DNA of 45,101 nucleotides from Piedraia hortae CBS 480.64. Its lineage: Eukaryota. Position 1 is the first letter of the stretch. Each line of letters opens with the position of its first letter. The translations under genes and the position numbers were made by a program. The stretch is taken from assembly GCA_010093745.1 (NCBI GenBank), contig MU006008.1, positions 1-45,101 of the forward strand, read 5' to 3'. Below, piece after piece: positions 35,658 to 37,894 of this stretch. Below the pieces are notes generated by a model, which did not search any database, had not been told where the DNA came from, and saw only the letters and a list, made by a program, of their open reading frames with translations.

Positions 35658-37894
35658 ATGGACGCTCCAGATGTGCCCCGGGCTCGGAACGAGACAGCGA
35701 GGAGGCACTCGCTCGGTCTCACAGCCTTGACTTCGCTGGTGAAGAGGAAGTCAAAGGCCGAGTCGAAACAATTACGACTACAATCGCGAGATGGTTCCAC
35801 GACGGATCTGACACCCAAGCCAAGCCACAGACACAAACCCAGTATTGCTGCCTCTTCTGCTACAAGCACCTCTTCGCGCCACATTGACACGCCACACACG
35901 ATCTTGGCAGAGCTTCCAGCCTTGTCTTTGGAGCACAATGATAGTCGCAGTTCGCTGGTGCGCCCGAGTAGCGAGCGCCGACCACTCTCAAGCAGAACAC
36001 CTGGAACGCCTTCGTTCCTGAACTCGCAAGAGGATGTTTCCAGCAATGCAAGGCTGGCAATTCCCTTGCCGTCCAGAAGCAGCAGCATGCTAAAAACCGA
36101 CCACGGCAAGCCGTCAACATCATGGGTACGAGCATCTGTTCCTTCGACTCCCGAGATTCTCTCTCCGCGGGAGCATAGCAGCGCCAATTCGCCGCACTCG
36201 CAAGAGACGGTGATCACAACGCCGCAATCAACAAGCGTTGATATTTCAACACTTGAGTCCGTCATGGAAGATGACCCAGAATCGTTTGATCTCCTACCGC
36301 CCTCGCTTCCACATCAGACTGAAGTAAACGTACTGGAGAAAAAAGCCGAACAAGTGTTCAGCCAGGCACACTTGCAAGCCATATTCGATAATCCAAAGCA
36401 GCTTCGAGAGTTCATCGGCTCTCTCAATCAGCGTCGACCGCAGTCCATTCCGATCTTGGTCTACTACCTGGATGCCCTCAAGGCTCTGCGTGCAATTCGC
36501 TACTCCAACGCAGTAGCAGAAGCATTGGAGTTCAATGCCAAACTACCTCTTACGCAAGGCCGCGTTCCGCCCACCCGTAATCCTGTACTGGAAGAGAAGG
36601 CTTCCCAGGCCTTTAATCTTCTGGTAGATGAGCTACCGGGTTACATTGTCCACGTGTGGACGAAAATCATGCGTCAAAGTGCGCTAAACAGCATAACGCA
36701 GCGCACCGAAGGGGCACCATCCAACAACTTGGCTGAGGCCTTTTGTCTGGCTGATCCAAGCCGGGCAGACACTCCCCTTGTCTTTATTTCGGAAGAATTC
36801 GCACGCATGACACAGTACAGCCCGTCCTTTCTCATCGGGAAAAACTGTCGATTTCTGCAAGGACCTGCAACCAACAAAGCGACCGATGCCGCGAAGCGAC
36901 GAATGGCTGAGGCATGTTCCTGTAGCAAGGAAATCACCGAGCTTGTGCTCAACTTCAGACGAGACGGCAGCCCATTCATGAACCTCATCACCATCGCACC
37001 CCTGGTCGATTCCCGCGGAGCATTGAAATACTTTCTCGGGGTCGCAACAGACGTCTCACACCTCCTCGCAACCACAACCGGCCTCGGGCCTCTGCATTCC
37101 CCCAATGACAAAAAGCGTGACGAACTAAGGGGGTTGAGTGAAATGCTCACAGCCACAGAGCAGGAAACCGTCCGACGTTTCGCAGGACGAATGCACACCA
37201 CCACCACCACCAACACCACAACCACAATCACAACTTATCCATCGGATTACGAAATCGAAAGCGAACTCTCAACCCCAATCAGTTCATGCAGCAGCGAGAA
37301 CCTATCCCTCCCCAAAGAACCCACCTCTCCGACCCTCTCACACCTCGGAATCTTCGATCAAGTATGTCCCTTTCCCATCACTCCCACCCAACTAACAAAA
37401 GGGAACAGTACCTCCTAATTCGCCCCTCGCCCTCCCTAAGAATCCTATTCACCTCTCCCACCCTCCGCGTCCCCGGAATCCTCCAATCCCCCTTCCTAAG
37501 TCGAATTGGCGGCTCCGACTCCGTACGCACGAGCTTATCAGACGCATTCACGCAAGGCCGCGGCATCACCGCAAAAGTAAAATGGCTTACCCGTCCCAGA
37601 CCGGGGAGCAGCGGGATGAAGTCCCCTACACCCGAGGATGAACCCGAGGAGCGGGAAAGGAACGAGACGGAGGAGTTTAGACATCGCTGGATTCGCTGTG
37701 TGCCGTTGTTGAATGCGGCGGGGGTTGTGGGGGTTTGGATCATTATCGTTGTGGATGATGATTCTTGTGTTGCGGTTAGGGCGTTTAAGGATCCGCCTCC
37801 GGTGGATAATGTTATTGGGAAAGGGAAGGTGGATTGTGATGATGAGGGGAAAGCTGCTGGTGTTGGGCATATTGCTTTGCAATTTGCTGGGTAA
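35658..37894 (+). CDS. RGS-LOV-DUF type blue-light sensor-like protein; intron 37362-37408
   Basis: Helical RGS-like region, LOV domain about 36733-37056 with GKNCRFLQGP and LNFRRDGSPFMNL, and C-terminal YLLIRPSPSLRILFTSP domain after splicing. Confidence 0.88.

Follow-up and report, generated by a model that had tools for sequence, protein, structure and literature searches.

The glutamine-less LOV photoreceptor gene of Piedraia hortae CBS 480.64

The gene K470DRAFT_251119 (KAF2858525.1) of Piedraia hortae CBS 480.64, analysed here within a 45,101-nucleotide window (contig MU006008.1 of GCA_010093745.1, positions 1 to 45,101), is a glutamine-less LOV photoreceptor gene in which the photoactive cysteine is kept and the signalling glutamine of the I-beta strand is replaced by alanine. 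Our analysis shows that this replacement is one of many at otherwise invariant positions and that the whole photoreceptor gene has been accelerated in P. hortae, evolving about ten times faster than in its relatives. We lean, with some reserve, towards a receptor that still binds flavin and forms the Cys adduct but signals more weakly and more slowly, with constraint on it relaxed. The Gln-less protein itself was already known through a 2022 supplement: of the about 350 natural LOV receptors without the glutamine (LOV-deltaQ) that Dietler et al. 2022 describe, one, given in their Supplementary Data 3, is residues 216-329 of KAF2858525.1 (PMC9098866). This listing removes the novelty implied by the original prediction and the discovery value, and what our analysis adds is the gene-wide acceleration. 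The expectation that Gln-less LOV domains are mainly bacterial also gives way, as part 1 of 5 of that supplement lists another fungal protein alongside numerous algal and plant ones (PMC9098866). Dietler et al. 2022 was the sole relevant match in our literature search on glutamine-deficient LOV proteins. Piedraia hortae is a black fungus living on hair, and a literature search for the species together with photoreceptors returned nothing.

The gene occupies positions 35658..37894 of the forward strand, on which all features described here lie, and comprises 729 codons followed by a TAA stop at 37892-37894. Its reading frame is 100% identical to KAF2858525.1 (P0001 in our protein set) over the part searched, and the order of its parts is that expected of a helical-domain/LOV/TSD photoreceptor orthologue. 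Exon 1 (35658..37361) opens with the ATG at 35658, 143 codons upstream of the annotated start, the Met at 36087 from which the annotated protein reads MLKTDHG; the ORF sequence MDAPDVPRARNE matches the N-terminus of the homologues, of which P0009 opens with MDAPDVPRSRDG. The intron at 37362..37408 (47 nt, GTATGT...CTAAC...AG) is read from the sequence and from a contig of run X2 (depth 1192) that joins 37361 to 37409 with GT..AG ends, a joint not found in the DNA run X1. Exon 2, which includes the stop codon (37409..37894), is covered by X2 record 8, running unbroken from 37409 to 37896 and retaining the annotated second intron (37621-37680). Of the two runs, X1 gave a DNA contig, possibly the one behind the assembly; X2 was made from a different sample in a separate study, bears the same organism code, perhaps from the same strain, and is taken as RNA because it carries the spliced joint, no run being recorded as RNA. 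Scans for tRNAs and tandem repeats found nothing.

The LOV core (LAEAFC...DVSHLL, 36729..37067) is recognised by the Pfam PAS_9 profile (1.7e-14) and by LOV sequences in the PDB, of which 142 distinct ones were matched by phmmer at E <= 0.001 (best 6rhg_A, 3.2e-25). Its AlphaFold2 model, with a core pLDDT of 93-97, superposes in Foldseek on LOV crystal structures with TM 0.85-0.94 and rmsd 1.0-1.5 A over 105-110 columns. Codons fall at 35658+3k, which places the originally proposed LOV start of 36733 one base out of frame. The photoactive Cys is the TGT at 36846..36848 in GKNCRFLQG, a position that is C in 121/121 aligned rows, and both flavin-contacting Asn (YtvA N94 and N104) are kept in LNFRRDG and PFMNL, just as the original prediction had read them. 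From the insertion that it reported after the Cys motif, three residues survive scrutiny, namely D-A-A in the E-alpha/F-alpha loop (~36885..36893, exact placement ambiguous), which leave a gap of three against PDB LOV domains and 24 aligned relatives and are seen in P. hortae only; the rest of GPATNKATDAAKRR is an ordinary E-alpha/F-alpha segment.

At the I-beta signalling-Gln position (AsLOV2 Q513, BcLOV4 Q355) the letters TAC TTT CTC GGG GTC GCA ACA GAC GTC encode YFLGVATDV, with GCA at 37044..37046, two base changes away from CAA or CAG; the proposed eukaryotic LOV domain with its Cys and without its Gln is therefore present in the letters. The filter of Dietler et al. asks for at least 8/9 consensus residues together with the absence of Gln at YtvA position 123 (PMC9098866), and the P. 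hortae domain passes with 9/9 (G, N, C, R, F, L, Q, N, N) plus Ala as the tenth, its ten-residue string being GNCRFLQNN+A. In the phmmer alignments shown, the Ala faces the Gln of those PDB chains that retain it (f+GV-TDV), and because the strand LKYFLGVATDVSHLL is without any Gln, a small alignment shift cannot supply one. The structural placement agrees: the Ala, residue 117 in the numbering of the modelled piece, lies within strand 110-119, and the best structural matches include CagFbFP Q148V/H/K/E. The change from GAQVD to GVATD replaces three consecutive I-beta residues; if it is fitted as a compensated +1/-1 frameshift, the gapped fit saves 4-5 mismatches, a saving equalled by 6-13 of 109 five-codon windows. 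Over 37031-37090, where we looked for sequencing error as originally suggested, the X1 contig (depth 12.9) and the main X2 contig (depth 1057) are both without any other letter, and a minor X2 contig (depth 23.5 vs 1057) has one, which by contig geometry probably lies near 37060, outside the Ala codon. Two runs, one with a spliced transcript contig, thus give the same letters, and the Ala is therefore not a sequencing error. That it could instead stem from sequencing, assembly or alignment is vanishingly improbable: we found no support for this, beyond the circumstance that X1 may be the assembly source and X2 the same strain, and against it stand the agreement of two runs from two studies, the concurrence of sequence-based and structure-based placements, and the independent alignment of KAF2858525.1 in the same way by the authors of PMC9098866. 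The Ala at the I-beta Gln position is real.

The architecture surrounding the LOV domain is also as predicted: an alignment with 24 relatives shows a single LOV domain followed by a conserved C-terminal DUF, now TSD, and, as judged from sequence, the gene belongs with the fungal BcLOV4-type ("RGS-LOV-TSD") receptors, the 'RGS' label being one of domain position. The all-helical domain upstream of LOV (36273..36713; six helices in the AF2 model, mean pLDDT 90.6) occupies the position of the 'RGS' domain of these proteins. The RGS profile PF00615 matched neither the query (E <= 0.1) nor 55 relatives (E <= 0.01), the search of PDB sequences returned no match to the domain, and none of ten family representatives checked by name is called RGS by its source. 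Foldseek likewise had no match at E <= 0.001, RGS10 and axin-RGS appearing at E 2.4-5.8 and TM 0.35-0.45, while VIA-align placed RGS7 (Z 6.5) and RGS3 (Z 6.3) among many helical hairpins with equal Z, and the top named Atlas clusters were RGS with a score of 0.88, under the 0.9 level.

The membrane-binding helix of BcLOV4 sits in the linker. This polybasic amphipathic helix, AH1 (FFK/FKK), lies between LOV and TSD in BcLOV4/RLT proteins, and its motif FFK.FKK was absent from the 387 proteins that we compared, a set that does not include BcLOV4 itself. In P. hortae the linker (J-alpha region, 37068..37361) is shorter than in the orthologues by alignment with 24 relatives; a stretch is deleted, the conserved RPRLLL motif is absent, 12/23 columns invariant in the others are changed, and a Thr-rich low-complexity run at ~37188-37236 was flagged as a repeat when reads were placed. 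The C-terminal domain (YLLIRPSPSLRILFTSPTLRVPGILQSPFL...WIIIVVDD, 37409..37759) keeps LRILFTSP.LRVPGILQSPFL in alignment with the orthologues; Pfam gave no match to it in the P. hortae protein and weak PAS_4 matches in this region in 2/55 relatives. The nearest relatives are Dothideomycete proteins, several of them from Friedmanniomyces endolithicus, whose homologue 'FeRLT' is described as a working light- and temperature-switched membrane binder (PMC12667789); our matches share the species of this tested protein and may include it.

Within the family, the loss of Gln is shown by our alignments to be specific to P. hortae, as the residue is kept in 119/119 of the closest homologues and in 211/215 near-complete LOV domains of the broader family, which answers in the negative the question of a lineage-wide loss. 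Deviations at 47 conserved columns number 0 at the median and 5 at the 95th percentile of the wider family; P. hortae has 5, the four other Gln-less domains have 2, 5, 7 and 8, and two of these four have lost the Cys too.

The rate of change was compared with that of 12 named relatives, a column counting as invariant if it is so in those 12. The P. hortae LOV core is 61% identical to the relatives, which are 86% identical among themselves; the corresponding figures are 65% and 89% for the TSD, the best-kept part, and 51% and 70% for the helical domain. Invariant columns are changed at 19/76 (LOV), 13/67 (TSD) and 15/58 (helical domain), or 19-26%, against about 1-2.4% in leave-one-out controls. 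The adjoining housekeeping gene, for S-formylglutathione hydrolase, is 79% identical to its relatives (80% among themselves) and changed at 3/131 invariant columns (2.3% vs 2.5% in the control). The P. hortae end branch measures 1.31 in the photoreceptor gene, where the median is 0.12, and 0.16 in this neighbour, inside the range of 0.03-0.27. The relaxed selection that the original prediction had offered as an alternative thus gains real support from gene-wide acceleration.

Constraint has nevertheless left its mark on a frame that is intact, transcribed and spliced. The 729 codons contain 0 stops, against roughly 5.4 nonsense changes expected if the excess were unconstrained (P ~0.004, a rough estimate), and 14/19 changes at invariant LOV columns have BLOSUM62 >= 0. 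In the LOV domain (25% vs 41%; Fisher p 0.12) and in the helical domain (26% vs 33%; p 0.46), invariant columns have changed only a little less often than variable columns have taken up novel residues, from which we conclude that constraint is much reduced there; in the C-terminal domain they have changed significantly less often (19% vs 42%; p 0.027). Over six related metagenome loci, dS was saturated in 6/6 P. hortae pairs and in 13/15 other pairs, and the two close pairs of other loci gave omega values of 0.021 and 0.036.

In a typical LOV domain, protonation of flavin N5 is passed on to the beta-sheet by the I-beta Gln. In the mechanism that we favour, the P. hortae gene encodes an orthologue of the fungal BcLOV4-type blue-light receptors, with their low-complexity N-terminus, helical 'RGS' domain, LOV domain, J-alpha linker and temperature-sensitive C-terminal domain. 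Its LOV domain, on the residues retained, would keep what flavin binding and the Cys-flavin adduct require, and Ala stands in place of the relaying Gln. According to Dietler et al., light signalling in YF1 largely survives most Gln replacements, Ala among them, the impairment of YtvA Q123A is slight, and light elicits a response from a natural LOV-GGDEF protein that bears Met; recovery is 10-fold slower in YF1 Q123L and falls from 1.43e-2 to 6.6e-4 per s in AsLOV2 Q513L, and replacement of the Gln shifts absorbance by about 8 nm to the blue (PMC9098866). On the basis of the engineered replacements, the P. hortae domain is predicted to keep its photochemistry, with absorbance shifted to the blue and recovery slowed. 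By the same analogy, the protein would still photocycle, absorb some 8-10 nm further to the blue, recover more slowly in the dark and pass a weaker signal to the J-alpha linker, via waters filling the vacated space, and purifying selection on the receptor would be relaxed, not gone, in this reduced-genome hair specialist.

The published replacements also point in another direction. BcLOV4 Q355N binds the membrane constitutively, that is, also in the dark (PMC6099885), and the Ala in P. hortae may therefore uncouple output from light, not merely weaken it. Flavin might still bind in such a protein, with its output disconnected by the Gln-to-Ala change, the reworked I-beta strand and the shortened linker, and it would act constitutively or solely via the temperature-sensitive C-terminal domain. 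The three consecutive I-beta replacements, the altered linker and the better preservation of the C-terminal domain are all consistent with this reading. We judge it unlikely, since light responses survived an Ala at this site in YF1 and were only slightly weakened in YtvA (PMC9098866), and since the Cys and 9/9 flavin or consensus residues remain in a LOV domain that has changed at 25% of its invariant columns, which suggests that photochemistry is still selected. A further possibility is that the gene is on its way out: P. hortae, a melanised fungus of hair nodules whose genome is the smallest among Dothideomycetes, would no longer be under selection for blue-light sensing, and the product would be a non-functional relic that is still transcribed. 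The roughly ten-fold, gene-specific acceleration would fit, as would the deviations of the four other Gln-less domains, two without their Cys, and the 16.95 Mb, 7,572 genes and narrow, stable niche of P. hortae (PMC7082219). The intact 729-codon frame with its working splice sites and transcript contig, the nonsense changes expected under neutrality, the mostly conservative changes in the LOV core and the retention of every flavin-site consensus residue but the Gln speak against it, and we regard such a relic as improbable.

Adaptive retuning rather than decay is, in our estimation, distinctly improbable. In BcLOV4-type receptors heat switches the lit state off through the C-terminal domain, and stabilisation of the active state (C292A/P) gives much longer membrane residence at 37 C (PMC12667789). 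A Gln-less, slow-recovering LOV domain would act like the C292A/P stabilisation, and the photothermal switch could stay usable at scalp temperature and in the low light of a melanised hair nodule; the gene-wide burst of change would then represent re-optimisation to a warm host niche.

The I-beta Gln has long been considered essential to LOV signalling, and natural Gln-less receptors are a test of that view. The BcLOV4 family is in wide optogenetic use, and the P. hortae protein would be a eukaryotic Gln-less case within it, whose native Ala variant and an Ala-to-Gln partner would form a ready-made pair for the interplay of photocycle lifetime and thermal inactivation. What the case still offers is a documented photoreceptor whose acceleration is gene-specific, in a fungus that has a reduced genome and occupies a narrow niche.

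Among known systems, P. hortae shares with BcLOV4 and the RGS-LOV-TSD ('RLT') receptors of Dikarya (Glantz et al. 2018, PMC6099885; 2025 preprint, PMC12667789) the order of low-complexity N-terminus, helical domain, single LOV domain with GxNCRFLQG, linker and conserved C-terminal domain. It differs in the Ala for Gln (BcLOV4 Q355), the 3-residue insertion following GPATN, a shortened, Thr-rich linker without RPRLLL, a truncated C-terminal tail and a branch about ten times longer than those of its relatives. Light-switched binding to anionic membrane lipids is reported for BcLOV4, CeRGS and Dothideomycete homologues (PMC6099885, PMC12667789). The P. hortae protein passes the filter for natural LOV-deltaQ receptors, of which the Mesorhizobium loti LOV-GGDEF-EAL protein WP_140774521.1 is an example (PMC9098866), yet that tested protein is bacterial, carries Met and has a diguanylate cyclase output, whereas the P. 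hortae protein is fungal, carries Ala and would have an output of the membrane-binding type. The engineered YF1/YtvA Q123A, AsLOV2 Q513L, BcLOV4 Q355N and CagFbFP Q148 variants are altered at the same position, but as single changes in otherwise optimised proteins, whereas the P. hortae Ala is among 19 changes at 76 invariant LOV columns. A further case is OTB05271.1 of Hypoxylon sp. CI-4A (P0189), which is also in the Dietler list (PMC9098866) and is the only other fungal-family member found here that keeps the Cys and 9/9 consensus residues and lacks the Gln, with Leu in its place. Its loss is independent of that in P. hortae, because Hypoxylon belongs to a different class (Sordariomycetes), and it is the more deviant of the two, with 8 versus 5 deviations at 47 conserved columns and a poorly matching N-terminal LOV half (Pfam PAS_9 profile positions 31-103 only).

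The LOV domain of the P. hortae photoreceptor gene (KAF2858525.1) keeps its photoactive cysteine and has lost the I-beta glutamine, as originally noted. Positions 37026-37067, within an open frame of the forward strand (35595-37418), translate to K-Y-F-L-G-V-A-T-D-V-S-H-L-L, with GCA (Ala) at 37044-37046 and no Gln anywhere in the I-beta strand; the GKNCRFLQG motif (Cys codon 36846-36848), LNFRRDG and PFMNL are all retained. A phmmer search of PDB chains (E <= 0.001) matched 142 distinct LOV sequences, led by 6rhg_A (3.2e-25), and set the Ala opposite the Gln wherever a chain keeps one, with no gap nearby. 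An AlphaFold2 model from an 80-row alignment agrees, placing Ala and no Gln inside the last strand (residues 110-119; core pLDDT 93-97) of a predicted fold that superposes on LOV crystal structures with TM 0.85-0.94 and rmsd 1.0-1.5 Å. The short insertion proposed in this domain exists but amounts to only three residues (about 36885-36893), and the LOV start first assigned is out of frame by one base. At 37038-37052 the family's GAQVD reads GVATD, a change of three I-beta residues in a row. At the DNA level a compensated frameshift may account for it, since one base gained within the run of Gs (+1) and one lost three codons later (-1) are fewer events than five substitutions; but 6-13 of 109 windows suit such a model just as well, so the fit does not favour it.

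Two public runs contain this stretch: a DNA sequencing run (X1), which may be the source of the assembly, and a run from a separate sample and study (X2). Contigs compared over 36300-37950 carry no differing letter at the Ala site in either; a sequencing error is thus not borne out, and we consider it barely credible that the Ala is an artefact. The two runs share an organism code and may come from one strain, so their agreement may speak for that strain and not for the species as a whole. A minor 60-nt X2 contig (depth 23.5 vs 1057) has one differing letter within 37031-37090, which from the contig geometry should fall near 37060, outside the Ala codon. Another X2 contig (depth 1192) joins 37361 to 37409, skipping 47 nt with GT..AG ends, and this joint is absent from X1, which argues that X2 derives from transcripts and that the gene is transcribed and spliced.

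The resulting model comprises exon 1 (35658-37361), a single intron (37362-37408) and exon 2 (37409-37894), for 729 codons compared with 566 aa in the database protein, to which our product is otherwise identical (100%; 'hypothetical protein K470DRAFT_251119', Piedraia hortae CBS 480.64). The database start is an internal Met at 36087 (MLKTDHG), 143 codons downstream of the ORF start; because the extra stretch (35658-36086) opens with MDAPDVPRARNE, matching the N-terminus MDAPDVPRSRDG of a homologue (P0009), the annotated protein looks N-terminally truncated. The annotated second intron (37621-37680) is 60 nt long, in frame, bounded by GT..AG and encodes SPTPEDEPEERERNETEEFR. An X2 transcript contig crosses 37409-37896 without a gap, so the segment stays in the message, at least in its main assembled form, and gives the C-terminal domain an acidic loop specific to this species. 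The forward-strand layout runs from a Ser- and Thr-rich N-terminus through an all-helical domain (36273-36713; model pLDDT 90.6), the LOV core (36729-37067) and a linker (37068-37361) to a conserved C-terminal domain (37409-37759; LRILFTSPTLRVPGILQSPFL...RWIRCVPLL...VWIIIVVDD). Within the linker, 37188-37236 is Thr-rich low complexity in ACC/ACA codons (TTTTTNTTTTITT), at the place where relatives carry acidic residues and a conserved RPRLLL(K/Q)D motif. A convergent reverse-strand open frame of 620 codons (37945-39807), with a high content of Ser, Pro, Asp and Glu, ends 50 bases from the photoreceptor stop.

Loss of the glutamine is not lineage-wide. Among the best 120 of 321 homologues, which include the P. 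hortae protein itself, all 119 others have Gln (I-beta consensus YFIGAQVDVSGL vs YFLGVATDVSHL in P. hortae), and Cys is kept in all. The set was then widened by 147 representatives taken from an exhaustive HMMER search; of its 215 family members that have the upstream helical region and a near-complete LOV domain, 211 carry Gln. The four exceptions pair Cys and Gln columns of P and H (P0134), C and R (P0240), S and M (P0192), and C and L (P0189, OTB05271.1 of Hypoxylon sp. CI-4A). Counted over 47 conserved columns, their LOV domains deviate at 2, 5, 7 and 8 (family median 0, 95th percentile 5), which puts them with the family's most divergent; P. hortae, which deviates at 5, stands 9th of 216. 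The original interpretation is partly supported: this is a real Gln-less LOV domain, but the variant is already catalogued and its novelty is low. Dietler et al. 2022 (PMC9098866) screened for natural LOV receptors that keep 8 or more of 9 consensus residues yet have no Gln and found about 350; their Supplementary Data 3 lists 'KAF2858525.1 216 ...YFLGVATDVSHLLAT 329' directly after OTB05271.1. The first of the file's five parts holds many algal and plant entries, at odds with a mainly bacterial distribution, along with two or more bacterial rows that have Ala here; the fungal rows are not discussed in the main text. Our literature search found no paper joining Piedraia hortae with a photoreceptor.

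P. hortae, whose black nodules form on human hair, has a genome of 16.95 Mb and 7,572 genes, the smallest among 101 Dothideomycetes (PMC7082219). Rates were compared with 12 named relatives having both the photoreceptor gene and the well-conserved S-formylglutathione hydrolase (esterase D) gene immediately upstream, which served as the rate control (given as 34739-35500 and as 34576-35503; 78-84% identical to Capnodiales orthologues), with leave-one-out controls. The LOV core is 61% identical to the 12 (86% among them), with 19 of 76 invariant columns changed (25%; control 1.1%); corresponding values are 65%, 89% and 13 of 67 (1.0%) for the C-terminal domain and 51%, 70% and 15 of 58 (2.4%) for the helical domain, and 12 of 23 invariant linker columns changed (4.6%). 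The neighbour is 79% identical (80% among the 12), with 3 of 131 changed (2.3%; control 2.5%). Maximum-likelihood trees give the terminal branch of P. hortae a length of 1.31 changes per column for the photoreceptor (median 0.12) and of 0.16 for the neighbour, within that gene's range of 0.03-0.27, so the acceleration belongs to the photoreceptor gene and not to the genome. Judged from these alignments, that the whole gene is accelerated in a fungus with a reduced genome is new, though modestly so.

The relaxed selection originally suggested gains support from this acceleration, and constraint is partly kept: 14 of the 19 LOV changes are conservative, in the C-terminal domain invariant columns have changed less often (19%) than variable columns have taken on a novel residue (42%; p 0.027), and no nonsense change is seen where about 5.4 would be expected if the gene were unconstrained with the same missense excess (rough P 0.004). 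By these estimates constraint is reduced, not gone, and decay of the photoreceptor towards loss seems improbable. P. hortae dS is saturated and gives no dN/dS value; for two pairs of closely related family members omega is 0.02-0.04, the family's normal regime.

With flavin-site consensus and Cys intact, Ala at the relay position, a transcript, a species-specific loss and relaxed constraint, published Gln replacements (PMC9098866) serve as the guide to signalling, absorbance and recovery. YF1 keeps its light signalling largely intact with most substitutes for the Gln, Ala among them, and YtvA Q123A is slightly impaired; replacement shifts absorbance about 8 nm to the blue and slows dark recovery (10-fold in YF1 Q123L, about 20-fold in AsLOV2 Q513L, 1.2-fold in NmPAL Q347L), and water has been proposed to substitute for the side chain, relaying N5 protonation to the beta-sheet. 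By analogy, water would fill in for Gln in P. hortae and carry this signal to the beta-sheet, absorbance would lie about 8 nm bluer and dark recovery would be slower. Given these precedents, we lean slightly towards a working, though weaker and slower, photoreceptor. The main rival, output uncoupled from light, is rather unlikely but gains from BcLOV4 Q355N, which binds membrane in the dark (PMC6099885), and from the badly eroded P. hortae linker. More doubtful than either uncoupling or decay is adaptive retuning: BcLOV4 stays active for longer at 37 C when its lit state is stabilised (PMC12667789), so that the slow photocycle of a Gln-less domain could be of use to a switch that has to work at scalp temperature.

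Placement among BcLOV4-type (RGS-LOV-DUF) proteins holds for the domain layout, but the RGS label is unconfirmed: Pfam RGS matched no protein, whether the query or one of 55 relatives, the helical domain retrieved nothing in a PDB sequence search, and in Foldseek no structure reached E <= 0.001, RGS10 and axin-RGS coming in at E 2.4-5.8. VIA-align scored RGS7 (Z 6.5) and RGS3 (Z 6.3) no higher than many helical hairpins, and an Atlas feature search ranked RGS clusters top, but at a score of 0.88, below the 0.9 level. Weak Pfam PAS_4 matches in the C-terminal domain of two of the 55 relatives (P0163, residues 433-495, E 7e-5; P0172, residues 471-528, E 1.3e-4) accord with the published suggestion that the DUF is PAS-like. 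In layout the P. hortae gene resembles the fungal proteins that Glantz et al. 2018 (PMC6099885) termed 'RGS-LOV-DUF', whose DUF was renamed the temperature-sensitive domain (TSD) in a 2025 preprint (PMC12667789). The preprint demonstrates that Dothideomycete homologues, including one from Friedmanniomyces endolithicus, bind membranes under the control of light and temperature, and several of the closest P. hortae matches are proteins of that same species.
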